A stretch of 64,000 nt of DNA, taken from assembly GCF_017348835.2 (NCBI RefSeq), contig NZ_CP072315.1. One strand, given 5' to 3'. The DNA is from Escherichia coli. GTDB taxonomy: Bacteria > Pseudomonadota > Gammaproteobacteria > Enterobacterales > Enterobacteriaceae. Each line of letters opens with the position of its first letter. The first letter of the stretch is position 1. The notes below the pieces were generated by a model that was not told where the DNA came from, searched no databases, and worked only from the letters and a program-made list of their open reading frames with translations. The translations under genes and the position numbers were made by a program. Below, in pieces: positions 2,264 through 47,085 of this stretch.

Positions 2264-2442
2264 TTAAAGCCCTTTTTGTAATGTCTTTTGGAGATGGAAC
2301 CATTATTCCATAGTCACGCGTTTCACAAACAACCTGATTGCATAAAAAAGGAAAAAAAGTGATTTCCAGTAGAACCAGCAGTACACAAGAAAAGCGCTTT
2401 TATAAAAATGTATAATTATTAAAACGAAGTAATGAGGTTGAA

Positions 2443-5494: not shown

Positions 5495-5551
5495 TCCTGT
5501 TAAGGGGGAACCCTAACGGGGCTTCTCTTTGAACAAATCGAGGAGCGGAAA

Positions 5552-5929: not shown

Positions 5930-5949
5930 CATTAAACCCACCCTAAAGG

Positions 5950-5980
5950 GGAGAAATCCCTTCATGGGATTTCTCCTTTT
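5950..5980 (+). terminator. Intergenic hairpin + U-tract (terminator/attenuator-like)
   Basis: GGAGAAATCCC-ttcat-GGGATTTCTCC then TTTT, immediately followed by GGAG and the ATG at 5990. Confidence 0.55.
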
Positions 5981-5989
5981 GGAGTCCCC

Positions 5990-6967: not shown

Positions 6968-7024
6968 AATGCCACTGGCAAACATCTGCCAGAGGGCGGT
7001 GTTTGCATTTTACCGGAGTTAAAA

Positions 7025-8083: not shown

Positions 8084-8418
8084 ATGGGATTTGTTATGAA
8101 ACCTCTGATATTTGTATCTCAGAGTTATCCCATCTTGAATTTAGTGCGTTTTTAAGTACGGATGGTGCTGCTACCATTGCTATAGCAAAAAACGGAACTA
8201 ATTTTACTGGACTTATGCAACTGAATAACGACTATTCTTTATTGTTTTATCATGATGGTAAAATAAATATGGAAGGTCTGATTAAACAAATGGAATTAAA
8301 AGGTTATATGTATCAGGGAGCAATGGGCAATGATGATGTTGTTGCTGAGTTTCCCGGTATTCTTTTAATTTCACCAGAGAAGCTTTAATATCAACCCTAT
8401 CGGGAAATCTTTCCCGTT

Positions 8419-8441
8419 GGGGAGGGTTTCCCCTTTTTTTT
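8419..8441 (+). terminator. Intergenic hairpin + U-tract directly upstream of an RBS
   Basis: GGGGA-gggtt-TCCCC followed by an 8-T run, then GGAG and ATG at 8452; an additional CGGGAAA/TTTCCCG hairpin at 8401-8416. Confidence 0.5.
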
Positions 8442-8451
8442 GGAGAAACCC

Positions 8452-9579: not shown

Positions 9580-9599
9580 CTGTTTGCTTTATTAAAAAC

Positions 9600-9641
9600 C
9601 CCAGATGGGTACTTCACCATCTGGGTGAGTACCCCTTTTTT
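9600..9641 (+). terminator. Intergenic hairpin + U-tract
   Basis: CCCAGATGG-(8 nt)-CCATCTGGG stem, then ACCCC and TTTTTT, 16 nt before the ATG at 9657. Confidence 0.55.
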
Positions 9642-9656
9642 ATAAAGAGGTATTCT

Positions 9657-11669
9657 ATGAAATTAGATCTTAAATCATCACCGCGCCATATTAAGCGTTT
9701 ACAGAATATAGCAAAAGTCATTAGCGGCTTAGGCGATGTAAGAGTTGTAATAGACGACAATACCAAAGGACCGTATTTTGATCCTGTAAATAAAGTTTGT
9801 GTTTTACCAAACGGCGATTATAGCGATGATGACTTTGTCAGTCTGATTGAAGGTTTTACCTGTCATGAAGCTGGTCATGGTCGCTATACCGACAGCGAGG
9901 TTTACAGTGACGCCTTTAATAGTGTTCTCAAGTCATCTGAAGGGTTTACACGCTTCGATGACGGAATGAATGCAGAGTTTGAGAGCCTCGCTGAGAAACG
10001 TAAAGCTTATAGCAGGGCAAAACGTCTTACCGGGCTTATAAATCTGTTCGATGATGTACAGATGGAAGAGAAGGTTGGTAACGATTATCCGGATGCAAAG
10101 CGGCGGCTTGCAGCCACTTACGCACTGATGGTTAAAGCCGGAAGGATGACTCCTGATATATCTTCTCGTCCGGAAAATCCTGTCCTATTTATTGAGTGGT
10201 ATCTGCTTAACTCATTGCGAGTAAAAGTCCTTCAGCAGGCAGGTCACAAAGAAACACTCGATCCGTTTTTTGACTATGCCCAAAAGATACTTTCTCCAGT
10301 AATTTCTGATGTTGAGGAAATTTTTCATGATGCTCTTGGTTGTGAAAATACTCAGGGCTGTGAATCCCTTGCTCGTAAGACCCTGGCTCTTTTAGAGAGA
10401 CTGCGGGATGAGGCAAGGGAACAACAGCAGCAGACAGAGCAGGAGGAGCAGGAGGCATATGATGAATCCGAGACCGATACCGATACCGATACCGAATCAG
10501 AAGATAAATCGCTTGAGTCGACTGATAGTCGTGAGGATGATTCTGAGGACGATAGTGAAGGTCAGGCAGATACTTCCGATAACTCTGATCTTGCTCAAGA
10601 GGGATGTTCTGAGCCTTCAGAACTTGCTGAAGATAACGAGGGAAATAATGAACCCACCGGTGGCAATCCCACAGGTGATAACATTATTGAAGACGATACT
10701 GATGCGATTAACCCTTCCGAGAGTGAATCAGATGAAGCCAGTTCGACTAACGTTGAAGATGAAAGTAACTTTTCATCGGCTCAATGGGAGATACTGGCAG
10801 ATTTGTTGGATGCCTTTCTTGGCAGTGATGAGGATAGCGAAGATTATCACGATGCTTTGGCTAAAGAGATTGAAGGTATTGCATCAAAAGTATCCGATGA
10901 CGTGAAAGCCGAATTCGGTGCTTCTGAATGGGATATCCCTGATCTCCTTATCGATTTGAATGTTTACAATGAGGCTTTGTCTCTGAGTCATTCAATCGGT
11001 AGCGACTTGTCTGTTTTACAGCAGGTTAAAATGCGTGGCCGAAACAAAACTCATGAGCGTGGAATTACCTTCGATGGAAATCGATTAATTCTGTCACCAA
11101 TGGGAGTTCGTGATGTCTTCAGAGCTCAAAGCGAATCTAAAAATAGAGGGCATGTTGGCCTCGTATTAGTTCGTGATATTTCAGCGTCAATGGCTAATGA
11201 TGAAAGATATATTCATGCCATTAAGTCAGATCTTGCTTTATCGATGGCCGCTGAAAGTTTGTCAAAAATGCATGTCTCCAATATAGTCTTTCCCTTCAAG
11301 GAAAGTGAATTTGAGATTATCAAAACGTTTGATCAAAGCGTTGAGGAATCTCTATCGAAATTCACTCTTGGATGTAAGGGTTATTATACCCCTACGGGAT
11401 CGGCTTTAATGGCAGCTGTTGATCTGTTACTTGACAGCCAATTCGATAGGAAAATAATTTTTCTTATAACTGATGGTTATCCGAATAAATCGGAATTTAC
11501 TATCGGCGAAGTTATGGAAAAGGCTAAATGTAATGGAATAGAAATCGTTGGTGTTGGTATTAAGACTGATGAAATAATTGGTTTTGAAACGGACACTTTC
11601 GTAACAGTTGATGATACTTCTTTATTGTCTATTGAAGTCAGTAAGCTAGTTCATCAAATACTTTCTTAA
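9657..11669 (+). CDS. vWA-domain protein, CobT-like, with acidic linker and N-terminal HExxH motif
   Basis: C-terminal vWA with MIDAS DISAS and ITDG; central highly acidic D/E/S/T-rich segment; HEAGH at residues 70-74. Architecture resembles CobT, the usual partner of CobS-like ATPases. Confidence 0.7.
   Translation: MKLDLKSSPRHIKRLQNIAKVISGLGDVRVVIDDNTKGPYFDPVNKVCVLPNGDYSDDDFVSLIEGFTCHEAGHGRYTDSEVYSDAFNSVLKSSEGFTRFDDGMNAEFESLAEKRKAYSRAKRLTGLINLFDDVQMEEKVGNDYPDAKRRLAATYALMVKAGRMTPDISSRPENPVLFIEWYLLNSLRVKVLQQAGHKETLDPFFDYAQKILSPVISDVEEIFHDALGCENTQGCESLARKTLALLERLRDEAREQQQQTEQEEQEAYDESETDTDTDTESEDKSLESTDSREDDSEDDSEGQADTSDNSDLAQEGCSEPSELAEDNEGNNEPTGGNPTGDNIIEDDTDAINPSESESDEASSTNVEDESNFSSAQWEILADLLDAFLGSDEDSEDYHDALAKEIEGIASKVSDDVKAEFGASEWDIPDLLIDLNVYNEALSLSHSIGSDLSVLQQVKMRGRNKTHERGITFDGNRLILSPMGVRDVFRAQSESKNRGHVGLVLVRDISASMANDERYIHAIKSDLALSMAAESLSKMHVSNIVFPFKESEFEIIKTFDQSVEESLSKFTLGCKGYYTPTGSALMAAVDLLLDSQFDRKIIFLITDGYPNKSEFTIGEVMEKAKCNGIEIVGVGIKTDEIIGFETDTFVTVDDTSLLSIEVSKLVHQILS
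10473..10493 (+). repeat. In-frame hexanucleotide tandem repeat (ACCGAT) x3.5 encoding TDTDTDT
   Basis: accgataccgataccgatacc read directly in the acidic linker of the vWA gene. Confidence 0.6.
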
Positions 11670-11685
11670 TAAACTCTACCCAATC

Positions 11686-11712
11686 GGGGCAAAAGGCCCC
11701 GGTGGGTCTTTT
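11686..11712 (+). terminator. Intergenic hairpin + U-tract
   Basis: GGGGC-aaaag-GCCCC then GGTGGGTCTTTTT, downstream of the 11669 stop. Confidence 0.5.
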
Positions 11713-11740
11713 TGCTCCATGAAGGAATAAGGAGCAAAAT

Positions 11741-11962
11741 ATGACTCAGATAAAAACTTACCGTGTAGAACATGAAAAAGTCGGTGCGATGCATAAAGTC
11801 CGTATTTTCGGACGTGTTGGTGAAGTTATAAGCAATGATAGCCCTCAGGAAAGAATCTTCCGCGAAGTCACTATAGCGGAGGGTAATAGCCAGCAGGCTG
11901 CGTTACTTGTAGATAACTACATACAGTGTCTTGAGAATAATGGCTTCACGACTGAAGCATAA
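11741..11962 (+). CDS. Hypothetical small protein (73 aa)
   Basis: ORF with AAGGAG-like RBS (aataaggagcaaaatATG) and its own downstream terminator. Confidence 0.45.
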   Translation: MTQIKTYRVEHEKVGAMHKVRIFGRVGEVISNDSPQERIFREVTIAEGNSQQAALLVDNYIQCLENNGFTTEA

Positions 11963-11967
11963 ATGTT

Positions 11968-11991
11968 GAGGGCCCCCGGGCCCTCTTTCTT
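11968..11991 (+). terminator. Intrinsic terminator
   Basis: GAGGGCCC-cc-GGGCCCTC perfect stem followed by TTTCTT. Confidence 0.55.
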
Positions 11992-12075
11992 AAATTCTGC
12001 GTTGTGGGTTTCTCCCTGTCTTCTGCACCGCAGAAGGCATTGAGAAACTCACAATGCCAGATAAGAGAGATCATC

Positions 12076-13308
12076 ATGACTTATGCATCCCCGGCTCTTC
12101 GTCGTAATCCACAGGAAGTATCTGAACACTTTATTAAACTCGTTCATGCTCGAATTGCTGAAGTGTCTGGCTGGAAGTATATATTCGAAAGAATACCTGC
12201 TTTCAAAGACGCTTGTGCAAAAGCCCCGAGCCAGGTTCCTTGCCCGTTTACTGGCGCAGGGAAATCGAAGTTTCGTTTCCGACAAAAAGACCTTTATACC
12301 GGATGTGCGATCCATAATGACTTTCCGGTAAATGAGTTTTGCGACGGAATTGATGTTCTGGCGAAATATTATGAATTAAGTAAAACGCAGACTTGCAAAA
12401 AGATTCTCTCAGATTTTTTCGGGATGGATCTGCATGCTCCGTTAACTGACGCCGACATTGAAAATGAACGACGCTATAAATCAGCAGTTCGTGCCACAGA
12501 AACTCTTGACCGAGAGGAAGTGGCAAAGCGAATGCGAAAACTTGATGTGATGTATCACTATACCGGTGAAATCAAGCCTAATACTCCTGTTGCTTTGTAC
12601 CTCCGTAATCGTGGGATCTCCCGCTTACTGAGTCACTTACCAAAGGATTTAGGCTTTAATAACCGGATCTACTATTGGGATAAAGATAAGCAGAAATCGA
12701 TTATCTATCCGGGAATGATTGCGATCTATCGTGACACCCGAGGTCGGCCTCTGACTATTCATAGAACATACGTAGACAAAAATGGTGATAAGGCACCTGT
12801 AGAAAATCCAAAGCTGATGATGAAGCCTCCTGCCGATATGACAGGTGGCTCAATTCAGTTGTTTGACCCTCACTATGATTCAGGTAGTTCGACCTGGACA
12901 CTGGGAGTGGCTGAAGGGATCGAGAACGCGCTTTCTGTTGTAGAAGCGACTTCAACACCATGCTGGGCAGCCAGCTCCGCATGGTGCCTTGAAAACGTTA
13001 CTGTTCCTGATTTTTTACTGCCTCCGCCGGATGTAAAATCTATAAACTTTTATATCTGGGCGGATAAGGATATTGCTAACTCACAAGGCACTCGTGCCGG
13101 TATTGAAGCTGCTCAGCGACTTCAAAGCCGCATGGTTGAGTTTTTGGCTAAACGATATCCCGCATCAAAGCTGACAATTGAAGTCTTCGAACCAGCACAA
13201 GATATTCCTGATGGGAAAAAGGGTATCGACTGGAACGATGTTCTCCAGTTAACAGGGCAGGATGGATTCCCGATTCACTGGGCTCCTGAATGTCTTAATC
13301 AGCTGTAA
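12076..13308 (+). CDS. Toprim-domain DNA primase-like protein
   Basis: Toprim signature (conserved Glu in LGVAEGIENALS, DxD in YIWADKD), N-terminal Cys cluster (VPCPFTG, CAIHNDF) suggesting a zinc-binding region. ATG at 12076 has an AAGAGAGA RBS; track start 12004 is GTG without RBS. Confidence 0.55.
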   Translation: MTYASPALRRNPQEVSEHFIKLVHARIAEVSGWKYIFERIPAFKDACAKAPSQVPCPFTGAGKSKFRFRQKDLYTGCAIHNDFPVNEFCDGIDVLAKYYELSKTQTCKKILSDFFGMDLHAPLTDADIENERRYKSAVRATETLDREEVAKRMRKLDVMYHYTGEIKPNTPVALYLRNRGISRLLSHLPKDLGFNNRIYYWDKDKQKSIIYPGMIAIYRDTRGRPLTIHRTYVDKNGDKAPVENPKLMMKPPADMTGGSIQLFDPHYDSGSSTWTLGVAEGIENALSVVEATSTPCWAASSAWCLENVTVPDFLLPPPDVKSINFYIWADKDIANSQGTRAGIEAAQRLQSRMVEFLAKRYPASKLTIEVFEPAQDIPDGKKGIDWNDVLQLTGQDGFPIHWAPECLNQL

Positions 13309-20697: not shown

Positions 20698-21234
20698 ATG
20701 AGTACTCAAAAGCAACTTTCCAGAACAACCGGCACTGAACGTATGTTTAAGGAAGAGCTGGCGTTATCCTTAATTTGTTGGGTTTTCACCAGTCCATTTA
20801 CCAACTGGACCGATAAAGTCTTCAGTGGTATTGAAGTTCCGTCTGAAGGACCGTCAACATTACTGGGTGAGGCTGAAAAATTCTTTCGTTTTGTCGTTAA
20901 TGAAGAAGGCTACGACGCAGGAAGGGCTGCTCTTGGTCTTGACCTATGTTGTTTTTCACTTCCGTCGTGTTTGTTCCCGGACGCTGCCCTGTCTGAGGAA
21001 GAGGTTATGAGTAAGTTAACCGGAGAAGTTATCCATGGGATTCTTCTTTCCTTACCTGAATTTATTGATATGCCAGAAGTGCTCGCTTACCAGGTCAGGG
21101 ATGAAATTCTTGCTTTTAACACTCGCTGTGGAGACGGGATCTTTCATGGTTGGAACACGGCTTCAGAATTGTGGAAGTTTGAAATCTTTCCCCGCACCAC
21201 CATCATGATGCAGCATACTTCGGCAATACATTAA
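20698..21234 (+). CDS. Hypothetical protein (178 aa)
   Basis: ORF in the same operon; no motif recognised. Confidence 0.45.
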   Translation: MSTQKQLSRTTGTERMFKEELALSLICWVFTSPFTNWTDKVFSGIEVPSEGPSTLLGEAEKFFRFVVNEEGYDAGRAALGLDLCCFSLPSCLFPDAALSEEEVMSKLTGEVIHGILLSLPEFIDMPEVLAYQVRDEILAFNTRCGDGIFHGWNTASELWKFEIFPRTTIMMQHTSAIH

Positions 21235-21250
21235 AATTAGGCGGGGCAGA

Positions 21251-21697
21251 ATGCATAAAAAACTTTTTCTTCTCGAATGGAAACCCTGTCAGAGCCGCGT
21301 ATGGGCCGGTTGGATGGCCCTGTGGTTGACTATCAGTTTTCTGATGTTATCTGCCTTGCTTATGACAGATCATCTCCTGAACAAAGTCATCCTGCCGCCA
21401 ACATGGTTGTTGATCTGGTTTTCGCCAATGCTGGGGTTTTTGATAAAAGTTCGCGTCGTCGAAACTCAACATTTCCTGGAGCATGACCTCTGTGTTGCAG
21501 GTTTCTCTTTTTACCGCTGGAAGAGGTTAGTTTCTCCCGGGCTTTGGTCAGTTGACTGTATAAATGGTCGTTTTCGCCTCAATCGGATCACCCAGGTGGG
21601 TAAGACTATCCACTATCCATGGCGTCTCCATTATCATCCTTTGTTCATGAGCCCTATCGAACATAAATCGCATGCTGTGAAAGCTGTTTCAAAATGA
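21251..21697 (+). CDS. Hypothetical membrane protein (148 aa)
   Basis: Hydrophobic segments (WMALWLTISFLMLSALLM; LPPTWLLIWFSPMLGFLI). Confidence 0.45.
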   Translation: MHKKLFLLEWKPCQSRVWAGWMALWLTISFLMLSALLMTDHLLNKVILPPTWLLIWFSPMLGFLIKVRVVETQHFLEHDLCVAGFSFYRWKRLVSPGLWSVDCINGRFRLNRITQVGKTIHYPWRLHYHPLFMSPIEHKSHAVKAVSK

Positions 21698-23951: not shown

Positions 23952-23967
23952 GCGCCCGTGAGGGCGC
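23952..23967. terminator. Bidirectional hairpin between convergent genes
   Basis: GCGCCC-gtga-GGGCGC between the 23945 stop (+) and the 23967 stop (-). Confidence 0.5.
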
Positions 23968-25151
23968 TATTCATCAAAGGCATTTCGCATAAGCTTGATC
24001 ATTGCTTTTTTACCAGCTTCAATATTACGAATGTAGCGCATAACCATTTCTTCATTCGACCAGTTCCCCATTTCCATAATCTGTGGTAGCGAGTAACCTT
24101 CAATATTTAGCTGTATCGCTCCGCCTACACGAACGCTGTGCCCTGTCCAGTAACGAGTTTTAGTCTCATTTGGATAAAGCTCATTCCACATCTCTTTAAA
24201 TGCTCGTAAAAGGGAATTTTTGCTGAGCATACCGGCATCGTCCACAGTGTCTTCTTCATCTTCATCGTTCAGAAGACTTTGCTTAGCACGATAGGGTAGG
24301 TTATGCCTTTTAAGAAGTTCAGATAGCTCATTCCCCTTACTCCGAAGCTTCCAGCCGGGTGGCATATAGCCTGTATCATGGAAATTTACGGCCTGGAAAA
24401 GGAATTCATCCGGATGACTGTGCTGATCCATTTTCACGAGGTTCATCAATCTCAAGAGGCAGTTAGTTAACTGACGTGTCAGCCGGTAGGTAAGAAGTGT
24501 ACTAATGTTCGTTTTTGTACGGTATACCGTCAGGTTAAATTCACCGGTCATACTATCCAGAGACAGATCTTTCAGACGTATACGTCGAATTTCGGATGAA
24601 CGGAGCAGTGTTTCAAAGCCTGTCCAGATCAGGCACAGGTCACGAAGTTTACGAACTGAGTTTGTAGTACTGCGTAACTTTATCAGAGCCTTGAGATCGC
24701 CAATAAGAAAGGGAGTTGCCTGTTTAGTCGTCTTTCGCTTCCGGGCTTCCGATTGTTTTAAGGCTTCCAGCATGTACCATGCTTCAGACGTAATAATCCC
24801 GGGCAGGTTAAGCCCTTTTTTATGGATACTATTTAAGGCCTGAAGACAGCTGTTTATGCTGCTTCGTGACAATTTGCCTTCAAGATGCCCCATAAACGCA
24901 AGCAGAGCGTCCTCAGACACGGGGAGCGAACTTACTGGCCAGTCTGTATGCAACCGGGCATTCGCCAGATACCATTCGTTCCATACTCGTAGCCAGTGCA
25001 GATAGGTTTTAGCAGTGTTGTATCTCAGATGGGAAAAGTAACGGATCAAGCGTGAAAGCTGTTTATCATGGTTGCCGAACGTTTCCAGCTGCTGATGCAA
25101 TTCGCTTTCCGAAAACTGTCTGATCACTGATTGATTCTTCATCCTGCTCAC
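23967..25151 (-). CDS. Tyrosine site-specific recombinase (phage-integrase family)
   Basis: C-terminal catalytic signature HSVRVGGA (H-x-x-R) and the Tyr in MVMRYIRN; upstream Arg in LRSSEIRRIRLKDL. Confidence 0.8.
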   Translation of the reverse strand: MSRMKNQSVIRQFSESELHQQLETFGNHDKQLSRLIRYFSHLRYNTAKTYLHWLRVWNEWYLANARLHTDWPVSSLPVSEDALLAFMGHLEGKLSRSSINSCLQALNSIHKKGLNLPGIITSEAWYMLEALKQSEARKRKTTKQATPFLIGDLKALIKLRSTTNSVRKLRDLCLIWTGFETLLRSSEIRRIRLKDLSLDSMTGEFNLTVYRTKTNISTLLTYRLTRQLTNCLLRLMNLVKMDQHSHPDEFLFQAVNFHDTGYMPPGWKLRSKGNELSELLKRHNLPYRAKQSLLNDEDEEDTVDDAGMLSKNSLLRAFKEMWNELYPNETKTRYWTGHSVRVGGAIQLNIEGYSLPQIMEMGNWSNEEMVMRYIRNIEAGKKAMIKLMRNAFDE

Positions 25152-25312: not shown

Positions 25313-25525
25313 ATGTCTGACACAAAGCAGTCTTATTTAATGAAATTCCGTAAGTGTAGTTCGTTCGAAACGCTCGAAAAAGTATTTGAAAGGTTATGTG
25401 AAAAAAACTCGGGTGTCGCCTCTCTTGAAATTTCTGGTGCTTATGATCATCGTAAAGCCGAACTGACAATGAAAAAGTTATATGACAAAGTTCCTGCGAG
25501 TGTGTGGACCTTTGTTCGCGAGTAA
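25313..25525 (+). CDS. hha: Hha/YmoA-family modulator (H-NS co-regulator)
   Basis: YLMKFRKCSSFETLEKVFE...YDHRKAELTMKKLYDKVPASVWTFVRE aligns by eye with E. coli Hha (YLMRLRRCQTIDTLERVIE...[26 protein letters not shown]). ATG at 25313 with GAAGG RBS. Confidence 0.8.
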   Translation: MSDTKQSYLMKFRKCSSFETLEKVFERLCEKNSGVASLEISGAYDHRKAELTMKKLYDKVPASVWTFVRE

Positions 25526-25885: not shown

Positions 25886-26968
25886 ATGCGTAAGAGTTAT
25901 ACATTTGGTATTCCATTTGGACTCCAGCGAGAATCAGGACTCTTTTTAGATATTACAGAGGTCAGCCGGGGTATTGACTGTAACTGCATCTGCCCCGCTT
26001 GCAAAACTGATCTGTTAGCAAAGCAGGGGGAGGTCAAGCTTTGGCATTTCTCACACAGTACAGCTGTAGCCGGTGACTGTGATGGTCTGATGGAAGCCAT
26101 CCGGGGAAAGATTATTGAAGTCATCAACGAGCACCAGGTTCTTGGTTTCCCAAATCTTCTCGCTGGCGACGATGGTGGGCCGGTTTCACTGAATGAGGTT
26201 AGTGGAAGCGGCAGTATGTTCGGAGGCACAGCTGATCTGTTCGTAAAGGTTAATGATTTATGTGTGGCCGTCTTTCTGGACAGGGATCGCAGCATTTCAG
26301 AGAAGTTAACCTTTGACCATCTTCATCCTTCCGAAAGAGTTGCCGCATTGCGTATCGATCTTCCTGATATTGAATATGAAATCAGTCAGGTGCAGCTCGG
26401 GCGACGTAAAACAACATACAGTGAGTGCATTGAAAGCCTGATCATTGATGAGACCAGTTCCCGGGAATGGCTATATCATCCATTAATGCATGAACTTGAA
26501 TCTGAACCTCTTCAGGAGTATCGGGGACGGGAGCCTTCAGAGGAAGGGCCTCTTCTTCAGCGCCTTGCTGACTGTAAGATGAAATTGCCTGATATCCTTC
26601 CGGGCAGTCATAACGCGCTAGTCAGGTTACAGCAGGATACGATTGTATGTCTGTGTCGGTTAACGGTTCGGGCTTATGACATCGCTCAGACCGATGAATT
26701 TCCTTTGTTCCTTCGCTATTTCAGGTTGCACTGCCTGGAAAACAGCGAACATGTCAGTTACGAAAGACTGATCTGCTGGCAGGAAATGATTTCAAAAACC
26801 CAGGAAGGCCAGTCCTTGACACAAAACGAACTTGAATATCTTCATGAGATTGTCCGCATCGCCTTTTACAATCACCGGCTTAACAATGTCAGTATTTCAG
26901 ATGTTAAAAACCATGACACTGGAAAGAAGAGCGGCAGGGTAGAGTCACAAAATTATTCACTTTTATAA
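25886..26968 (+). CDS. Zinc-finger protein, possibly CoiA-like nuclease family
   Basis: N-terminal CNCICPACKTDL...KLWHFSH (Cys cluster + HF[AS]H) recalls competence protein CoiA; otherwise unassigned. Track start 25856 is TTG; ATG at 25886. Confidence 0.4.
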   Translation: MRKSYTFGIPFGLQRESGLFLDITEVSRGIDCNCICPACKTDLLAKQGEVKLWHFSHSTAVAGDCDGLMEAIRGKIIEVINEHQVLGFPNLLAGDDGGPVSLNEVSGSGSMFGGTADLFVKVNDLCVAVFLDRDRSISEKLTFDHLHPSERVAALRIDLPDIEYEISQVQLGRRKTTYSECIESLIIDETSSREWLYHPLMHELESEPLQEYRGREPSEEGPLLQRLADCKMKLPDILPGSHNALVRLQQDTIVCLCRLTVRAYDIAQTDEFPLFLRYFRLHCLENSEHVSYERLICWQEMISKTQEGQSLTQNELEYLHEIVRIAFYNHRLNNVSISDVKNHDTGKKSGRVESQNYSLL

Positions 26969-27134
26969 ATAACTTGGGCTTTGCGCATTAAACCCTTGCC
27001 GCAGGCGGTGTACCGCATATCCGGCACAGACAGTCAGTTTTTTCTGGCAGCTTAAATTTGACACTGCTTAATATAGTGATTCATTAAACAGGTTCAGTAT
27101 GCTGCCAGAACGTTTTAGTCGTAATGGGCGTCCG

Positions 27135-28688
27135 TTAGTTTTCAACTAACTGAACGACGACCAGCCTGCCGCCTTCCTCCTTTGACAGAACAAACTGAGC
27201 GTTATTCGTCAGTTCAATTTTTTCCCCAATGGCAATCTGTCGTTTATCCGGTAATGACATAAGCCCATTTATGCCTTCATTTACTAACCACCACTGATCG
27301 TTATGGAAAACAAAATACCCAACTCGTTTCCTTTGTGCATCGGTTGTGCGCTCATTTGGCGCAATGAGGCGATTCACATGCCACGCATAGATTGACTGCC
27401 CGCTCCACACCATCAACCGGTGGTCGTCAGGACGATAACTGCCTTCCTTTCGGGATGAATATAAATTTAGAACCGGTAATTTACCCTTGTATGGCGTACC
27501 GCAGTAGGGACAAACCGGCTTTGTCTTACCTGAGAAAACGTACCATTTCTGTTCACACGCCTTGTTCTGGCAGGGCTGTATCAGATCGACTGTTTTAACC
27601 AGGGCACTTTCCCACTCATCGGCGGTCGGGCGTTTATTGGCATCGTGTAAGCCATCAATAAAGGCGCGTTCAAACAAAGGCGTCAAATAAGGGCCCATGA
27701 TGGTGTAAGGAATTTTCTCCGGGTCAGCCCAGGGCAGTGAAAAGGAGGATAGCTGACTGACTTTGACTGCATTGCTTTTGTCTGTCGGATGTTCAATGAA
27801 GAGTGCCTTCTCACCCATAGATAAGGTCTCATCACGTACTTCATCCGACATGTCATGTATTTTTCCGCCACGTAGCGGATGACGGAAGAACAGATACATG
27901 TAGATAAGCACCGACAGCGCATGACGGTCAGTAGAAATGCTTGGCAATACGCGGTTCGGATCCTCTTTGGAAAGATGGCTGGTTTTCACCACTTCCGGAG
28001 CGATAAAATCCGGGGTGCCCACGACGTCGGGAGGATACTTTCCAGGGACAACCAGGCCGTCTACGTCAATGATGCAGGCATGTCCCATTTCTGGATCGAT
28101 AAGCACGTTTTTATAGCTTAGATCGCTGTGACAGAGACCTGCCGCATGCATCCTTCTGACGGCTCTTGTTAGCAGCAGACAGACCTTGAGATAGGTAAGC
28201 GTATTGCCTCGTTCACGTGGGTCGAGAAATTTATTCTGGTTGCTGGCGCTGGCAAACCATTTGCCTTCCTTTTCACGGCCTTTTATGCCAAGAAAATCAT
28301 CGTTTTTAGAGCCGTATTTAAAGAAAAAGTAGCTTTTGTAGGTTGGAACCACGATGCCGATTTTATCCCCATGCTCAACAACGTGGGTCGGCCAGCAAAA
28401 CAGGTCCTTCCAGTATTCACCTCCGGACTGGCCAAAAATGTTTTGCCTGTAGCGTCCGGTGATCATATCAATCCGATCCCGGGCCTGCTCGTTCTGCGGT
28501 TTATGATAAAAAGCGACGACGTATGATTTATCAGGCGAGAAGTAAACATCCTTCATCGAGCCCGAACCAATTACCTCGTCAACATACTGGACTGTTTCGC
28601 CGTCCTTTGTTTTGCACGTAACAATATTTGCCATATTGATCACCGAAGAAGCGTATCCCTTACCACAACACCGCAATAGTGCGGTCAT
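27135..28688 (-). CDS. Ser/Thr protein kinase of the TerY-associated triad, with C-terminal zinc ribbon
   Basis: Catalytic loop CHSDLSYKNVLID, DFG-equivalent IIDVDG, later CQNKACEQ...CPYCGT; last gene of the TerY operon. Confidence 0.8.
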   Translation of the reverse strand: MTALLRCCGKGYASSVINMANIVTCKTKDGETVQYVDEVIGSGSMKDVYFSPDKSYVVAFYHKPQNEQARDRIDMITGRYRQNIFGQSGGEYWKDLFCWPTHVVEHGDKIGIVVPTYKSYFFFKYGSKNDDFLGIKGREKEGKWFASASNQNKFLDPRERGNTLTYLKVCLLLTRAVRRMHAAGLCHSDLSYKNVLIDPEMGHACIIDVDGLVVPGKYPPDVVGTPDFIAPEVVKTSHLSKEDPNRVLPSISTDRHALSVLIYMYLFFRHPLRGGKIHDMSDEVRDETLSMGEKALFIEHPTDKSNAVKVSQLSSFSLPWADPEKIPYTIMGPYLTPLFERAFIDGLHDANKRPTADEWESALVKTVDLIQPCQNKACEQKWYVFSGKTKPVCPYCGTPYKGKLPVLNLYSSRKEGSYRPDDHRLMVWSGQSIYAWHVNRLIAPNERTTDAQRKRVGYFVFHNDQWWLVNEGINGLMSLPDKRQIAIGEKIELTNNAQFVLSKEEGGRLVVVQLVEN

Positions 28689-30300
28689 CGTGGTTCCCTG
28701 TGGAGAAAAAGTTAAGCCAGTCGCCTAACCTCTCAGGCGCAATACTGGCGTCTGTAAGGACAGGGATGAGCTCATCAAGGAGACGGGTCCATTTTTCGTC
28801 ACTGCGAAGCCCGTTATCTGTCTCAAACAGAGGGTCTGATACGCCATCTGTCATGAGGATCAAGTGAGATACATCATTCCATTTACCCACGCTGATGCGG
28901 CCGCTAAACGAGGGGTCTGCGATAATGCTCTGGTCAAGAAAGCGGGTTTGTCCTGCGTATTCTCCGCTATCGGGATTTCCCAGTATCCTGACTTTACCGG
29001 AAGGGCTGTATGCACCTATCGCACCATCACCAAGCCAGAATGCAGCCGCAAACAGCTCGTTATCAGTTCGTAGCGCTACAGTTGCCAGTAGGGTTGTTGA
29101 ATAGGATTTCACAGGTTGTTCTGCACAAATGGCTTCGTTCTGGATACTGTTGACCGCGAGCGTAGCTGCCTGTTTAAAATGATGAAGCATGGCGTTTATG
29201 GTTGCCTGCTGATCGCTCCCTTCCCACGCCGTGATGTGCTGCTTTAGATGGACGCCTTTCAAACCACTGAGCTGATTGAAAAGGTAATCGCCAGCCGTTT
29301 GGACTGCAATCCGGGAGCCTTCCCGGGAATTTACCGCACTACCGGCCCCGTCTGCGACCAGCATGACAGACCATCCTGTTTCCTGGCAGTGGTTGATATA
29401 GAAGTCGTCATCTCTGAAGCTCCCGGCATGCTCATGAGATCGTCCCCGGCGACTGGCGGCAGCAATACGTATGTCACCCCTGACCAGGCCAGCAGCGTCC
29501 AGATGGGACTTAGGGTAGGAAGCGTCTGCTGGTGGCTCTACCACCTTCCACAGGCTTCTCGGATCGGGATTGACTATAAAAAGCTGTTTTGTTTCGCATT
29601 CGTCGTGCGAAGCGCATGACCAGAGTACTGAAAGCTCTATATCGCCGCTTTCGGTGGGTGTACCTGTCAGCAACTTATGCTCTTTGTCAAAGGTCAGGCC
29701 AATGTTCCTGGGAAAGACAACGTCCCTGACAGTAGCCTGCTGGCCCTCATCCAGAACTATAGCAACCGGCGAAGAGAAACGTTCGCCTGCGCGGGCGTTG
29801 GGAATAACTATTTTAGCTCTCGGGGGAACGGCAGGTGGCACAGCTAATCCGGCCCGCTGCTGGCCTGTCGGTATCTGCCCGGGTTTTAATACCAGGGAAG
29901 ACAGGTTTTCGTCTTCCCTCTGTGCTGGTTTATCAAATTCGTAATAAGGCATCAGCTTCCAGAACGGAGGATGAGGTTCATTTTCTGGCAGGGGTTGCAG
30001 TAATGGTGTATCGGTAGCGTCAATGCCCGGGTTATCAGCATCACTTACGACCGTTTGTTGCTGATCGGAAAGGCTGGATGCTGACGAGGGGGCGATCTCT
30101 GCGTCGTTATAACCTTCGCTAACCCGCGCAGATAAACCCTGTGCAAGGCTCTCAATCCGCTCTTTAAGCCGCATAATCTCTTCAGTAAGGGAAGGGTCGT
30201 GCGATAGAAGAAAAAGCCGCTCACCTTCTACAGGGTGGCCCAGCTCAGACAGCACTAAGCGGATAATCTTCTCTTCAAGTAAAACATTTTGCGACATCAA
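28660..30300 (-). CDS. PP2C-family Ser/Thr phosphatase of the TerY-associated triad
   Basis: Metal-binding motifs LVADGAGS and LILMTDGVSD; start ATG overlaps the upstream stop (ATGA). Confidence 0.8.
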   Translation of the reverse strand: MMSQNVLLEEKIIRLVLSELGHPVEGERLFLLSHDPSLTEEIMRLKERIESLAQGLSARVSEGYNDAEIAPSSASSLSDQQQTVVSDADNPGIDATDTPLLQPLPENEPHPPFWKLMPYYEFDKPAQREDENLSSLVLKPGQIPTGQQRAGLAVPPAVPPRAKIVIPNARAGERFSSPVAIVLDEGQQATVRDVVFPRNIGLTFDKEHKLLTGTPTESGDIELSVLWSCASHDECETKQLFIVNPDPRSLWKVVEPPADASYPKSHLDAAGLVRGDIRIAAASRRGRSHEHAGSFRDDDFYINHCQETGWSVMLVADGAGSAVNSREGSRIAVQTAGDYLFNQLSGLKGVHLKQHITAWEGSDQQATINAMLHHFKQAATLAVNSIQNEAICAEQPVKSYSTTLLATVALRTDNELFAAAFWLGDGAIGAYSPSGKVRILGNPDSGEYAGQTRFLDQSIIADPSFSGRISVGKWNDVSHLILMTDGVSDPLFETDNGLRSDEKWTRLLDELIPVLTDASIAPERLGDWLNFFSTGNHDDRTIAVLW

Positions 30301-31337
30301 CCTCTCCCTCTGTTTACGTCGAAGTTAGTGTTTCCGCCATCATTGCTGAATGACAGACCTGTTTCACACCACGGGCAGATCACGTCATCCGGGCCGTCAA
30401 TGCACAGCAATTTTCCGCATGAGCACAGGGCAAACGCACTGGCATTACCGCAGTGAGGGCAACCCGGTACGCCATGCAGTTCGCTGGTGTTTACCTGCAA
30501 ACCGGTAGCGGTGGCATCTGACCATGCAAAATAGTCTTCATCGATGGGATAGCATCCGGCAATATTAAAGCTGTTCAGGTTCAGGCTGAAATCGAGCCCG
30601 GAAATCCTTGCTGGTGGCCGTTCATACTTCATCAGATACGGACGACGGGTCTTGCTGCAACGGCCGGTAAGCGTAACGCAGTTTTCGTCGTACGCTTTTA
30701 CTGGCTCGTCCTTGGCCAGCCGGACTATGTATTCAGTCTGGCTGAGCTCAGGTTGTTTGTCGTCTCCGACGCTGCGGCTGTGCGCCGTAACCGAGGCTGT
30801 GATCCATTTGATGAAGCGGGTAAAGTCCCCTTCCTGAGACTCGGTGAACAGCATGACATTCTCTGTCAGTTGCCGCAGGGTATTCAGGTCCGCTGACGGC
30901 CCCAGGCCAACGGCAATGAGATTCACTTTACTCGCGTAGTGATCCTTCCAGCGCTTCACTTCTGCGGTTGTGTCGTCAGTCGGACGTCCGTCGGTAAGGA
31001 GATACACGACGGGTTTCCAGTCGCCTTTAGCCTCATGAGTGGTTTTTCTGACCTGGGTATCAATTTGTACGGTCAGCTCACGCAATGCGGCCCCAAGGCT
31101 CGTACCGCCGCCAACGGGAAGGCGGGGAGGGTAGAACGAGGCAATTTCGTGAAGAGGTACAATCGTACGGGCTACACCGGCAAATGCGATTACCGAAACC
31201 CAGGCTGTTTCAAGTGCGTGTGGATCCTTTCTTAAATCTCCGATGATCATTTGCAGACCATCAGTCATTTTTTTCAGGTTTTCACCAATCATGGACTCTG
31301 AACAGTCCAGGACAAAAAACACGGGAAGGCGTCTCAT
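30297..31337 (-). CDS. TerY-like vWA protein with C-terminal Cys-rich zinc-ribbon region
   Basis: MRRLPVFFVLDCSESM (MIDAS DxSxS), YLLTDGRPTDD; C-terminal CPHCG...CSCGKLLC...CPWCE. ATG at 31337 with GAGGAAAA RBS; the track's upstream extension lacks an RBS. Confidence 0.75.
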   Translation of the reverse strand: MRRLPVFFVLDCSESMIGENLKKMTDGLQMIIGDLRKDPHALETAWVSVIAFAGVARTIVPLHEIASFYPPRLPVGGGTSLGAALRELTVQIDTQVRKTTHEAKGDWKPVVYLLTDGRPTDDTTAEVKRWKDHYASKVNLIAVGLGPSADLNTLRQLTENVMLFTESQEGDFTRFIKWITASVTAHSRSVGDDKQPELSQTEYIVRLAKDEPVKAYDENCVTLTGRCSKTRRPYLMKYERPPARISGLDFSLNLNSFNIAGCYPIDEDYFAWSDATATGLQVNTSELHGVPGCPHCGNASAFALCSCGKLLCIDGPDDVICPWCETGLSFSNDGGNTNFDVNRGRG

Positions 31338-31422
31338 AATTTTCCTCGTACGGCTGGTACGGCCAGCAGAAAACGTTGCTGTACAGAAAGGTGCTGCCCG
31401 GAAAGCAGCACCTTTCTGTCTG

Positions 31423-32064
31423 TCAGAGCACCAGCTGGATTTCTGGTGGAGGAGGGGGAAGGGTATCAGTTCCGTTATTGATCCCCGCGCTTGTGCTGCC
31501 GGAAGACACGCTGGCCGATACCCATTTAAAGAAACCTGCAAACGCGGTTGAATCTAGCGTCTCCAAAGACACAACCTTATCGGTGAGCTGTTTTAAGTGC
31601 TCATGGCCTGCTTTAGGACCAACGGCGCAGGCAATGATGGATCCGAATCCCCGGCCGCGAATCGCTTTTACCGCTTCACCGTACGCCAGGGCATCAGAAG
31701 GGGTTCCATCAGTCATCAGGAATACCAGAGGACGCCAGTCTCCTTTTGTATCACCATCTGAGCGACGTACATCCCGTTCAACACACTGCATCAGACATTC
31801 AAGGGCAGCACCGGTGAACGTCCCGCCTGCGCTTGGCACAACGATGTCAGAAAAGTGGAAGTCTTCCAGCGGCGTGAGAGGAATGAACTCACGCGCCTCA
31901 TTGTCATAGGTGATAATGGAGATATGAACGCTTTCGAGGGCGTAGGGATCCTGGCGAAGAGCGCTAAGCATCGCCTGAATTCCAACGTTAACGGAATGGA
32001 TGGACTCACCGCGCATCGAGCCGGATGTGTCGATAACAAGGTAAACAGGCAGGCGGCGCATCAC
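31423..32064 (-). CDS. TerY-like vWA protein
   Basis: MMRRLPVYLVIDTSGSM and FLMTDGTPSD MIDAS motifs; ATGA overlap with terX stop. Confidence 0.8.
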   Translation of the reverse strand: MMRRLPVYLVIDTSGSMRGESIHSVNVGIQAMLSALRQDPYALESVHISIITYDNEAREFIPLTPLEDFHFSDIVVPSAGGTFTGAALECLMQCVERDVRRSDGDTKGDWRPLVFLMTDGTPSDALAYGEAVKAIRGRGFGSIIACAVGPKAGHEHLKQLTDKVVSLETLDSTAFAGFFKWVSASVSSGSTSAGINNGTDTLPPPPPEIQLVL

Positions 32065-32702
32065 ATGTAATTCCTCAGGTGCGAGACAAACGAATCTGAT
32101 TCTGAAGGCTCACCAATTGCCCTGAGTTTCCAGCCTGTAGCCTCGCGTATCAGCTCGGCAAAAACCATGGAGCGCTGGCTGGCGAAGGCGGGTCCGCCAG
32201 AAAGATCGAATCGTGCCATTTCAATATTACGGGCATCTACTGCCCGGATGAAGGCATTCTGAACTTTACCAAAGTGCTGCTGGAGCTTTTCACCATTGTA
32301 GATCTGAACGATGAACACAATTTTCTCGTACTGAGCGTCAAGGGAATTCAGGCGCACAATAATTTGCTCATCGTCACCATCACCGGCTCCGGTTCGGTTA
32401 TCGCCCGTCAGCCAGATATTTCCTGACTTATGGCGAAGGCTGTTGAAAAAGATGATATCGCCATTCACAAGCGTTGGTTTACCATTTTCCACATTGCCGA
32501 GATCGGTCACCTTTCCGGCTGAATTACACAGGAAAGCGATCACATCAAGGTCGTATTCTTCTTCTTTTTTACCAAAGATCCCGCCGAGGAAACCTTTCTT
32601 TTCCTCATTAATATCCCAACCCAGGCCGATAGTAACGGACGAGAGATCGTATTCATTTTTTTTCAGGCTTACGCCCTGGCCTTTGCTCAGACTGACAGAC
32701 AT
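32061..32702 (-). CDS. terX: TerD-family protein TerX
   Basis: TerD-domain hallmarks: N-terminal SLSKGQGVSL, GLGWD, GDNRTGAGDGDDEQI; sits between TerY paralogues as in known ter loci. Confidence 0.75.
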   Translation of the reverse strand: MSVSLSKGQGVSLKKNEYDLSSVTIGLGWDINEEKKGFLGGIFGKKEEEYDLDVIAFLCNSAGKVTDLGNVENGKPTLVNGDIIFFNSLRHKSGNIWLTGDNRTGAGDGDDEQIIVRLNSLDAQYEKIVFIVQIYNGEKLQQHFGKVQNAFIRAVDARNIEMARFDLSGGPAFASQRSMVFAELIREATGWKLRAIGEPSESDSFVSHLRNYM

Positions 32703-32724
32703 GACATCCCCTTAATTAATAAAA

Positions 32725-33363
32725 TTATAAGACCACGTTTACTTCTGGCGGCGGCGGTGGCAGGTCTTCAAGACCGATCACTTCTTTTTTGCTGGACTCC
32801 ACTTTCTGACTGCCTACCGAAATGCTCGCACTGACCCATTTAAAGAAAGCTTTAATCGTCGAACTGTCAGCTGTATCGAGCTGAACCACGATTTCAGTGA
32901 TTTCTTTGAGGACGCTGGTATCGGCATCATGCCCGGCTGCACATGCCACAACAACGCCGGTTCTGGCCGCTTTAAAGTCATTCAGGCCTTTACGCCAGTC
33001 ATCATTCGGACTTCCATCCGTCATCAGGAATACAAGGGGACGCCAGTCACCTTTAGTGTCAGCCGTCGTTTTCTGTACTTCTTTGGCAATGGAGCTGGCC
33101 GTCAGGGTAAGCGCTTCGCCAAGAGAGGTGGTGCCGCTGGCTGTTAGTGCTGGCATCTGGAAACTCAGGAGGTCTGTCAGGGGGACTGCCTGTCGGGCTG
33201 AAGAATCAAAGGTGATCACTGACACGTAAGCCGTTTCGAGTGCATACGGATCCTGTTTCAGCGTGGTAAGCAGCGTCTGAACGCCATTCTTAACCGCTTC
33301 GATAGGCTCTCCGTGCATAGAGCCGGACGTGTCGAGTAGCAGATATACGGGTAAGCGTCTCAA
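32725..33363 (-). CDS. terY: TerY vWA protein (first gene of the TerY operon), TTG start
   Basis: RRLPVYLLLDTSGSM, FLMTDGSPNDD. Homology begins at a TTG (revcomp of caa 33361-33363) preceded by AAGAAGGAA RBS; the track's longer N-terminal extension is not supported. Confidence 0.75.
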   Translation of the reverse strand: MRRLPVYLLLDTSGSMHGEPIEAVKNGVQTLLTTLKQDPYALETAYVSVITFDSSARQAVPLTDLLSFQMPALTASGTTSLGEALTLTASSIAKEVQKTTADTKGDWRPLVFLMTDGSPNDDWRKGLNDFKAARTGVVVACAAGHDADTSVLKEITEIVVQLDTADSSTIKAFFKWVSASISVGSQKVESSKKEVIGLEDLPPPPPEVNVVL

Positions 33364-33825
33364 ATGTAATTCCTTCTTAAGAGATCGGAAGAGGAGAGTA
33401 GTTTCAGGAAGAGGCCAGAGTTTGTAGATTTGATAAAACGGCACGACATCTGTCGGGTGGAGATTAAATACTCAGAAGCGGCATTAAAGAAATAAGTTAA
33501 CCACCATTGAATTACCGACATGTGAATGGCCTCTTATCAGAGAAAAAAATTCAGACCGTACTGGAATATAAATTTCTGAAAAAAACTCCGGCAAAAATAA
33601 ACTTTCTTATGTATGAAAATCATCATACATCACAGATCTGCATGAATGGAGTGTAAATCGCCCAAAGATTGATGTGTAGCACAAGAGGATGTCAAGACAC
33701 CAGGTTTTGTAGGCAGAAAGGCGCTGCTGACATTGCGGGAGGAGAATAGATCAAAACTCCGTCACGCAGATACAGAGGTGAAATATGACAAAACCGGGGT
33801 TTTCACCCCGGTCTGAGATTTAGCG

Positions 33826-45843: not shown

Positions 45844-47085
45844 GTGAATCTACAATCCGGACAAAACATACCGCTTCAGCAATCTGCGATCAGGCTGAAT
45901 CTTCAGTACCCTGCCAAATCCGGCTTTAAAGGCGAACCCGATACCTGCCTCTTCCTGCTTAATGCTCAGGGAAAGGTAACCGGCGATTCTGACTTTATCT
46001 TTTATAATAATCTGTCTTCTCCTGAAGGGGCAGTAAAGCTCGTTACCGGTTCTCAGCAGTCCAGCATTGAGATAGCACTGGATCGTGTTCCGGCGAACGT
46101 CAGTAAGATTGCGATCACCGTTGTCATTGATGGTGAAGATACTATCAGTGGGCTCAGTTTATTGAGCATTCAGGCTCCTGGTATCGCTGATTTTCAGGCT
46201 GAGACTCAGGGCCGCAGTGAGAAAGCAATCATCCTGGGTGAAGTATATCGGCACAATGGCGCCTGGAAGCTTCGTGCGCTCGGGCAGGGTTTCAACGGTG
46301 GTCTTGAGCCTCTGGCCATTAGCTTTGGCGTTGATGTCGCACAGCCAGCTCCGCAGCCAGCAAAGCCTGCTCGTATCAGTCTGGAAAAGAAACTTGAAAC
46401 CAGATCTCCGCGCCTCGTAAGCCTCGCTAAAAAAGCCTCGGTCAGTCTCACTAAAAATAAACTGGACACCCTTGAGGCAGCGGTTGCATTTGTACTTGAC
46501 GCATCCGGCTCAATGAGTGGCCAGTTCAGTAAGGGCAACGTTCAGTCTGTGCTGGACCGCATCGCCGTTCTTGCCGCCCAGTTCGACGACGACGGTGAAA
46601 TGGATGTCTGGGGATTTGGAGAGAAGCACAAGAAGTATCCAAACGTCACACTGGACAACCTGGACACATATATTCAGTCCATTCGCGGGTCTGGAAAGCG
46701 TTCAGCCTGGGAGAACCTGCCGGGACTTGGTGGGACAAACAATGAGCCCCCTGTGATGGAAGAAATTGTCGACTACTTTAAGGACTCGAAAATCCCGGTA
46801 TATGTTGTATTTATTACCGATGGCGGGATCAGCAAGACCCGGGCGATTAAAGATGCAATCCGGCGTTCTGCCAACTACCCCATCTTCTGGAAGTTTGTCG
46901 GCCTGGGTGGTTCAAGCTACGGTATCCTCAAAAATCTGGATGACTTTACTGACCGCCGGGTTGATAACACCCACTTCTTTGCCATGGATGATTTCGGTTC
47001 GATCAGCGATGAAAAGTTATATGATAATTTACTGGAAGAATTCAGACCGTGGATCGATGAAACAAAAAGGTTAGGCATCCTGTAA
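45844..47085 (+). CDS. terF: TerF: TerD-domain + C-terminal vWA-like domain, GTG start
   Basis: N-terminal TerD-like region, C-terminal VLDASGSM and FITDGG; GTG at 45844 preceded by AGGAGA RBS; own promoter region after the terE terminator. Confidence 0.8.

Follow-up and report, generated by a model that had tools for sequence, protein, structure and literature searches.

What does the TerY operon, the six-gene cluster that stands beside the tellurite resistance (ter) genes of large enterobacterial plasmids, do, and does it act with these genes or apart from them? The question is raised here by a stretch of Escherichia coli DNA 64,000 nucleotides long (assembly GCF_017348835.2, contig NZ_CP072315.1), called the window below, which is a piece of IncHI2 plasmid backbone. 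Its minus strand carries, between positions 27135 and 33363, six genes for TerY1 (a stand-alone vWA protein), TerX (TerD family), TerY2 (a second stand-alone vWA protein), TerY3 (a vWA domain joined to a TerY_C domain), a PP2C phosphatase, and a Ser/Thr kinase. Previously, the name TerY-P was given to a tellurite-linked set that consists of a TerY-like vWA protein, a PP2C phosphatase, and a Ser/Thr kinase carrying a zinc ribbon on its C-terminal side, and for which a role as metal-sensing phosphorylation switch was predicted (Anantharaman, Iyer and Aravind 2012, as cited in PMC11090510). Every part of this definition is found in the window, where a preliminary description had recognized a Ter-linked vWA/PP2C/kinase signaling triad.

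We consider it probable that the IncHI2 TerY operon, the founding example of TerY-P, is a metal-dependent phospho-switch that tunes the Ter machinery and is composed of a core triad and an accessory half. The locus itself is known: more than a thousand plasmids that carry it have been sequenced, its gene names date from the 1990s, and the module was analyzed in 2012. The additions made here are modest, namely a cryptic FHA fold and a WNK-like lysine in the kinase, an immunoglobulin-like (Ig-like) domain in the phosphatase, polyproline tails on two TerY proteins, a hairpin at the boundary of core and accessory genes, and an asymmetry between plasmids and chromosomes in E. coli.

Identity and reality of the six genes

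Judged by identity and gene order, the operon is the already described TerY operon of the R478-type ter locus of IncHI2 plasmids. The top match to an operon query is 100% identical over 6.6 kb and is typed IncHI2A, and the comparison with R478-type loci suggested in the preliminary description led to the same locus, with the same gene order, 100% DNA identity to IncHI2 plasmids, and nothing of substance different. The operon is preceded on its own strand by terW, a DUF4236 gene, and the ter biosynthetic genes (C-C lyase, StiP, HAD-like, phosphoribosyltransferase, and ATP-grasp), and terZABCDEF is divergent from these genes. The published orders are terY3Y2XY1W-terZABCDEF (PMC11003894) and terY-CYXYW-ZABCDEF (PMC12054061), and a "TerZF/TerWY operon" is placed by one study in the core of the ancestor common to IncHI2 plasmids (bioRxiv 10.1101/334409). 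As a rule, the published gene lists go no further than terY3 and give the phosphatase and kinase genes no name.

The limits of the six open reading frames (ORFs; Table 1) agree with the PGAP calls of plasmid NZ_CP090540.1, the reference record for gene calls, whose sequence matches the 6.6-kb query at 100% identity; they are also those given in the preliminary description, whose domain calls (vWA, TerD, vWA, vWA with TerY_C, PP2C, and protein kinase) were all borne out by Pfam hidden Markov models. The kinase scores 39.4 bits against the Pkinase model, above the Pfam curated cut-off of 31.7 bits. The TTG start that had been proposed for terY1 is credible because a Shine-Dalgarno sequence, AAGGA, lies 7 nt upstream and because the resulting N-terminus, MRRLPV, is common to all three TerY paralogues and their orthologues. 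The starts of the longest ORFs, which would give a 414-aa TerY3, a 517-aa kinase, and a 239-aa TerY1, were rejected as over-extensions. The genes had been described as overlapping or abutting, which holds for terX/terY2 and terY3/PP2C, where stop and start share one base in TGATG, but not for the terY1-terX and PP2C-kinase junctions, with spacers of 22 and 25 nt, nor for terY2-terY3, whose 85-nt spacer is the sole long intergenic gap in the operon.

The six genes were compared with their positional orthologues in Pectobacterium, Yersinia, Thiorhodococcus, and Nitrosomonas. The proportion of synonymous differences (pS) is ~0.8 and thus saturated, and that of nonsynonymous differences (pN) lies at 0.09-0.15 for the enterobacterial orthologues and at 0.21-0.33 for those of Thiorhodococcus and Nitrosomonas, with the PP2C gene as an outlier at 0.37-0.45. 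Amino acid identities are 54-86%, and only 36-48% for the PP2C gene. A pN so far below saturated pS argues that the six genes are real and under strong purifying selection, and not chance ORFs. Within the window the vWA paralogues are 41-48% identical to each other (TerY1 and TerY2, 48%), low enough to indicate that the TerY triplication is old. A scan with NCBIfam gave only generic matches below threshold, and an Rfam search of positions 26.5-34.5 kb returned nothing real.

Distribution on plasmids, on chromosomes, and in other genera

Matches to the operon query were found in 1304 plasmid records; they cover at least 80% of the query in 1202 records and reach an identity of at least 99% in 732. 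The matching plasmids are mostly conjugative and mostly IncHI2, and come from Escherichia, Enterobacter, Salmonella, and Klebsiella. Among 5426 E. coli genomes, the terZ-terC core was found in 1009 (342 plasmid and 697 chromosomal places) and the TerY operon in 345 (294 plasmid and 64 chromosomal places). The operon thus accompanies the ter core at 294 of the 342 plasmid places as against 64 of the 697 chromosomal ones.

On the O104:H4 chromosome the operon is intact, at 98.7% identity. The O157 comparison proposed in the preliminary description came out differently: the island of the O157:H7 strain MB9-1 has terW and terZ-E, but the TerY operon is wholly absent, and IS66 elements follow directly after terW (3879-8700 of that locus). 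In a second chromosomal E. coli ter island lacking the operon, an IS1 element abuts terW (2039-5506 of that locus). Since the operon is missing from O157:H7 and from other islands, the ter core persists without it in most chromosomal islands. O157:H7 is tellurite resistant, in agreement with the transposon mapping described below. From this pattern the operon is best described as accessory to the ter core and not required for it, being present or absent independently of terZABCDE. In one chromosomal ter island without the operon, a type II Zorya system was seen a few kb away, which gives these islands the character of defense islands.

The same six-gene order was found at five other loci, in Pectobacterium polaris, a second enterobacterial lineage, Yersinia intermedia, Thiorhodococcus mannitoliphagus, and Nitrosomonas communis. 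The protein lengths are nearly equal across the cassettes: 212, 213-214, 212-213, 346-351, 519-577, and 499-504 aa, from TerY1 to the kinase. In Nitrosomonas communis, genes for TerC and TerD stand ahead of the cassette. The preliminary description had singled out the triplicated vWA gene, the zinc-ribbon fusion, and the embedded TerX as notable features of this DNA; the arrangement is, however, identical in hundreds of plasmids and conserved in distant proteobacteria, and the triplication, the TerY_C fusion, and the embedded TerX are, as this conservation indicates, the ancestral norm of the family and not a plasmid peculiarity.

More distant relatives show the core. One metagenomic locus contains the vWA-TerY_C, PP2C, and kinase genes alone, followed by a TerF-like gene, a TerD gene, and ter biosynthetic genes; at a further one, several vWA genes and a PIF1-type helicase gene precede the triad. 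These relatives argue for terY3, the PP2C gene, and the kinase gene as the core and for terY1, terX, and terY2 as the accessory half.

Metal-binding motifs of the TerY and TerX proteins

The metal ion-dependent adhesion site (MIDAS) motif, DxSxS..T..D, is complete in all three vWA paralogues, and its residues D11, S13, S15, T79, and D116 are invariant in 18 sequences (the 3 paralogues and 15 orthologues). TerX retains the calcium-site motif GDN..GDGDDE and aligns to the solved TerD structure 3ibz with an E-value of 1.5e-37. In TerY3, the Cys pattern of the TerY_C domain is kept across 6 genera.

TerY1 and TerY2 orthologues from six genera end in LPPPPPE(V/I)(N/Q)(V/L)V(L/V/I), of which LPPPPPE is invariant from Enterobacterales to Nitrosomonas. 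This tail looks like a docking peptide; TerY3 carries the TerY_C domain in its stead.

The PP2C phosphatase

In the catalytic domain, the metal-binding Asp motifs are intact and are invariant in 30 homologues. An AlphaFold2 model places a three-helix segment at the N-terminus and a variable disordered linker at aa 60-135, followed by a beta-sandwich that resembles Ig-like and cadherin-like domains of the He_PIG type. This domain was matched to the cadherin-like modules of SraP by Foldseek (E-value 1.4e-5) and to 4m03 by phmmer (E-value 3.9e-5), and it fits the motif G-L-x-F-D...L-x-G-T-P. The Pfam family PF05345 is present in a homologue of the phosphatase, while the window protein itself has no Pfam match in this region. 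The phosphatase diverges much faster than the products of the other five genes, and the bulk of the change falls in the linker, which is acidic.

An unusual kinase with a zinc ribbon and an FHA fold

The HxD..N, DxDG, and APE motifs of protein kinases are present, and the zinc ribbon named in the preliminary description is confirmed by four invariant Cys residues. The lysine of the beta3 "VAIK" motif is absent from the whole family, and the window protein reads VVAFY there. An invariant lysine, K28 (codon 28551-28553, minus strand), occupies instead the third-glycine position of the glycine loop (IGSGSMKDVY). With hhalign, the N-lobe matched WNK1 with a probability of 95.8% and an E-value of 7e-9, pairing IGSGSMKDVY..VAFY with IGRGSFKTVY..VAWC; the WNK1 and PKA sequences used in these comparisons were entered by hand. 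The alignment with the PKA profile covers the C-lobe only, and phmmer found no match of the N-lobe in PDB. In PDB, the sequence that the kinase-family profile matches best is that of Rad53.

The C-terminus forms an eleven-strand beta-sandwich of FHA fold, an assignment made on fold: Pfam FHA gave no match to it at E-values up to 10, and hhalign against the FHA domain of GarA reached a probability of 3%, which is not significant. Binding of phosphothreonine by this domain is plausible and is taken here as an assumption. The family comprises 340 cluster representatives at E-values of at most 1e-30, mostly of ~480-510 aa, and their alignment runs from end to end, so the FHA-fold tail is a family trait. 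In a metagenomic relative (147-1706 of its locus), a 380-aa kinase with a zinc ribbon is followed by an ORF of 131 aa that holds the FHA-fold part by itself; this could be a genuine split or an assembly frameshift.

RefSeq names for the kinase are "lipopolysaccharide kinase InaA family protein", "helix-hairpin-helix domain-containing protein", "protein kinase", and "kinase", of which the first two are misleading. The "helix-hairpin-helix" label, which COG also uses, was rejected, as there is no such Pfam match in that stretch; the residues around RPTADEW look like the probable end of the kinase C-lobe. Among 50,697 phage records, the kinase had one weak partial match, and the module is therefore not phage-borne.

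The probable transcription unit and its internal hairpin

A strong hairpin resembling an intrinsic terminator follows directly after terW and would mark the upstream limit of the TerY transcription unit. Together with the promoter-like site downstream of it, this hairpin makes the six genes look like a transcription unit of their own, the co-transcription being suggested by the layout. Promoter-like sites are no commoner in the region of this candidate than in shuffled sequence. Just upstream of it lies a 22-bp palindrome, which is kept with 1 mismatch in the O104:H4 chromosomal copy and is not conserved at the distant loci; it may be an operator, e.g., for TerW. The term "terY operon" is used in a transcriptome paper on Pectobacterium, where a site for TerW was predicted ahead of terY1 (PMC7843439). 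Comparison of the palindromes upstream of terY1 and upstream of terZ gave no convincing shared motif.

The terY2-terY3 spacer contains a perfect stem-loop, and the RNA fold of the whole spacer has a free energy of -41.2 kcal/mol (z = -4.4). The hairpin sits exactly between the Y1-X-Y2 accessory half and the Y3-PP2C-kinase core triad, and may set the relative expression of the two. At the Pectobacterium locus (7204-7322), a terminator-like hairpin of other sequence, with a U-tail, occupies the same spot; the hairpins in the terY2-terY3 gaps of Thiorhodococcus and Nitrosomonas are not significant.

Comparison with known systems

Like the TerY-P triad of 2012, the window operon has adjacent genes for a vWA protein, a PP2C phosphatase, and a zinc-ribbon kinase beside ter genes. 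Its additions are, in front of the triad, two stand-alone vWA genes and a gene for a TerD protein and, within the triad, the FHA fold that follows the zinc ribbon of the kinase as well as the phosphatase's Ig-like domain. No mention of these two domains was found in the TerY-P literature consulted, which did not include the 2012 analysis.

Antiphage activity is known only for other lineages of TerY-P. The "TerY-P-like" modules of Gao 2020 have a kinase with an oligonucleotide/oligosaccharide-binding (OB) fold, according to PMC11090510, and TerY-P(-like) triads are described as protecting against T7-like phages in the account of PMC7699616. A variant from P. aeruginosa (Costa et al. 2024) was active against Autographiviridae without collapse of the culture, and was missed by both PADLOC and DefenseFinder (PMC10889362). 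The validated systems and the window operon share the three enzyme and domain classes in one operon; the validated ones, however, have an OB-fold kinase, a single vWA protein, and no TerD protein, whereas the window kinase has a zinc ribbon and the FHA fold. In PADLOC searches with strict and very loose settings, the vWA and PP2C proteins had no match even at E-values up to 10. The kinase matched only the kinase loops of mad6, PD-T4-6, and MkoA, while STK_OB, a model included in the PADLOC library, was unmatched. As for the antiphage TerY-P assignment given in the preliminary description, the operon is thus classed as a TerY-P triad in the sense of 2012 and not as a member of the validated defense family; an antiphage role is hypothetical, though the operon may act like such a system all the same.

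Other likenesses are in design. In the PpkA/PppA/Fha1 set of type VI secretion, a kinase, a PP2C phosphatase, an FHA protein, and a vWA domain form a reversible switch that licenses a larger machine; there the vWA is the periplasmic domain of the kinase and the FHA domain is a separate substrate protein, whereas the window operon has the FHA fold on the kinase itself and encodes its vWA proteins, which are cytoplasmic, as separate chains. The likeness to this set concerns design only. Rad53/Chk2 and the window kinase have kinase and FHA parts on one chain, and WNK has a lysine in the glycine loop at a place like that of K28; the FHA fold of the window kinase is, however, C-terminal and without the canonical contact residues, and no common descent is claimed. 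In Deinococcus radiodurans, DRA0331-DRA0334 encode a vWA protein, a Ser/Thr protein kinase, an FHA protein, and a KI-FHA-PP2C protein, and measurements there showed kinase phosphorylation to be under push-pull control by way of FHA docking (bioRxiv 10.64898/2026.01.23.701218). This operon resembles that of the window in domain content (vWA, kinase, FHA, and PP2C); its FHA domains are on the phosphatase and on a separate protein, and it has no TerD, TerY_C, or zinc ribbon.

Proposed mechanism and alternatives

In the mechanism that we propose, the vWA and TerD proteins would form a scaffold or sensor dependent on divalent metal, and the kinase would phosphorylate Ser/Thr residues on a partner, most plausibly on the TerY proteins, whose Ser-rich segment KW(V/I)(S/T)AS.S.GS is a predicted substrate, or on itself. 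Its FHA-fold domain would dock on the phosphorylated state, which the PP2C phosphatase, targeted by its Ig-like domain, would reset. The reversible switch would tune or license the membrane stress and phage-response machinery of Ter, unless its output acts by itself in defense. The PpkA/PppA/Fha1 set and the Deinococcus operon serve as working analogies for this mechanism. The terY3-PP2C-kinase triad would be the core of this device and terY1-terX-terY2 an ancient accessory half. The operon itself would confer no tellurite resistance: when the phenotypes Te (tellurite resistance), Phi (phage inhibition), and PacB (colicin resistance) were mapped with transposons, as cited in PMC12054061, the mapping led to terZ, terC, and terD. 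Protection from tellurite and from oxidative damage is better with more complete clusters, which include terXY1W, than it is with minimal clones (PMC11003894).

Several observations weigh against a switch coupled to the Ter machinery. The Thiorhodococcus cassette is preceded by just one TerD gene and has no further ter gene, neither TerC nor terZAB, within 10 kb, which weakens the case for an obligatory coupling to the Ter membrane complex. The terY operon of Pectobacterium shows no response when phoP is inactivated, unlike the other ter genes (PMC7843439). The spacer hairpin could terminate part of the transcripts. Finally, the contact residues of FHA domains (GR, SxxH, and NG) are not evident in the kinase, which has an invariant GQS where GR is expected.

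In a more far-reaching version, which we put forward tentatively, the cassette may serve IncHI2 plasmids as a phage or stress sensor, in the form of an ancient phospho-switch that is gated by metal and sufficient in itself. Its atypical kinase, with the WNK-like lysine, the zinc ribbon, and the cryptic FHA fold, would dock on phosphorylated TerY, and the LPPPPPE tails and the phosphatase's Ig-like domain would wire the complex together.

A different and rather unlikely explanation is that the operon is a self-contained antiphage system of the Gao 2020 TerY-P type, which would block phages, likely T7-like ones, without terZABCDE and merely travel beside ter. The activities of other TerY-P triads cited above point this way, as does the P. 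aeruginosa triad, a variant that detection tools missed too. So do the Thiorhodococcus cassette, found without the rest of a ter locus, and the related triads that adjoin helicases and McrBC-type systems. Fast evolution is frequent among conflict genes, and the PP2C gene changes much faster than the other five; a phage-inhibition phenotype of IncHI2 ter clusters is also described (PMC12054061). The phage inhibition of R478 was mapped, however, to terZ, terC, terD, and terA, and not to the TerY operon, according to the same source. The cassette adjoins at least one further TerD-family gene in every locus examined, and it encodes no effector such as a nuclease, a pore, or an NADase. The PADLOC results and the fold of the kinase, set out above, also argue against this explanation.

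It is far less likely that the operon is a safety device, which restrains the toxicity of TerZABC to the host and corresponds to the "protective region" of R478. That region reportedly includes terW, terX, and terY. The title of Whelan et al. 1997 speaks of a region of R478 by which E. coli is protected from the toxic effects of ter components, and the retention of the operon at most plasmid ter places would fit such a role. But ~90% of the chromosomal E. coli ter loci, including that of O157:H7, keep terZABCDE without the operon, and protection is therefore not generally required. TerW, whose gene is retained in those loci, is a regulator and could explain the protective effect (PMC7843439 and PMC12054061); moreover, the cassette exists where terZAB is absent, as in Thiorhodococcus. 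That the genes are decaying passengers without current function can practically be dismissed: their frequent loss from chromosomal ter islands through insertion sequence elements would suit it, but decay is excluded by the conservation data, namely six reading frames intact in 1202 plasmids, pN far below saturated pS, invariant catalytic and metal-binding residues, and synteny kept across Enterobacterales, Chromatiales, and Nitrosomonadales.

Feature coordinates and neighboring genes

Table 1. Genes, protein domains, and candidate regulatory elements of the TerY operon, in window coordinates
Feature	Position	Strand	Description
Weak terminator-like hairpin downstream of kinase gene	26976-26995	-	consensus match only
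Kinase gene	27135-28634	-	499 aa; Pfam Pkinase 6e-10
Kinase C-terminal FHA-fold domain	27138-27482	-	aa 385-499; cryptic in sequence
Kinase zinc ribbon	27501-27572	-	C-x4-C ... C-x2-C; four invariant Cys
Ser/Thr kinase domain	27585-28634	-	HSDLSYKN, IDVDG (DFG position), GTPDFIAPE
PP2C gene	28660-30297	-	545 aa; Pfam PP2C_2 (PF13672) 1.3e-46
PP2C catalytic domain	28663-29445	-	RDDD, ADGAGS, LGDG, TDGVSD, HDD intact
Phosphatase Ig-like/cadherin-like (He_PIG-type) beta-sandwich, aa 160-245	29563-29820	-	pLDDT ~93
Phosphatase N-terminal three-helix segment, aa 7-60	30118-30279	-	AlphaFold2 model
terY3 (vWA and TerY_C)	30297-31337	-	Pfam TerY_C 4e-53 and VWA 1.5e-13
terY3 TerY_C, Cys-rich metal-binding domain	30300-30689	-	PF15616 4e-53, model positions 1-129/129
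terY3 vWA domain	30768-31337	-	MIDAS DCSES..T..D
terY2-terY3 spacer stem-loop	arms 31383-31397/31405-31419	-	perfect 15-bp inverted repeat
terY2 (vWA)	31423-32061	-	212 aa; Pfam VWA 4e-12
terY2 C-terminal tail	31426-31461	-	LPPPPPEIQLVL
terX (TerD family)	32061-32702	-	213 aa; Pfam TerD (PF02342) 1.3e-52
terY1 (stand-alone vWA)	32725-33363	-	212 aa, TTG start; Pfam VWA 3e-14; PGAP call
terY1 C-terminal tail	32728-32763	-	LPPPPPEVNVVL
Sigma-70-like promoter candidate	33565-33594	-	TTGCCG-18-TATATT; ~200 nt upstream of terY1; consensus match only
22-bp palindrome, candidate operator	33609-33630		ATGTATGA-N6-TCATACAT; just upstream of promoter-like site
Intrinsic-terminator-like hairpin directly after terW	33791-33814	-	10-pair stem, 6 GC pairs, T-rich tail

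A fourth vWA protein of the ter locus is TerF (45844-47085, plus strand), in which a TerD domain is fused to a "vWA-TerF-like" domain; in O157:H7 (strain MB9-1 locus, 20975-21361), TerF is shortened to the TerD part. Another vWA module of the window, at 7025-13308 on the plus strand, comprises an AAA ATPase, a DUF3150 protein, a 670-aa vWA protein, and a toprim protein, as annotated in an identical plasmid. Convergent with the kinase gene is a 360-aa ORF (25886-26968, plus strand), annotated as hypothetical, with a CoiA_N-type zinc finger (Pfam 6e-8); beyond it lie a gene of the Hha family (25313-25525) and a tyrosine recombinase gene (23967-25142).

Significance

Concrete targets for mutagenesis are offered by the kinase in its FHA fold and glycine-loop lysine, by the phosphatase in its Ig-like domain, and by TerY1 and TerY2 in their polyproline tails. 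IncHI2 plasmids are major carriers of multidrug resistance, and a defense or stress module carried on the backbone would matter for plasmid fitness and for phage therapy. If the cassette is indeed a self-sufficient switch, many large conjugative multidrug-resistance plasmids of Enterobacterales would carry a second phage-defense or stress module besides terZABCDE.

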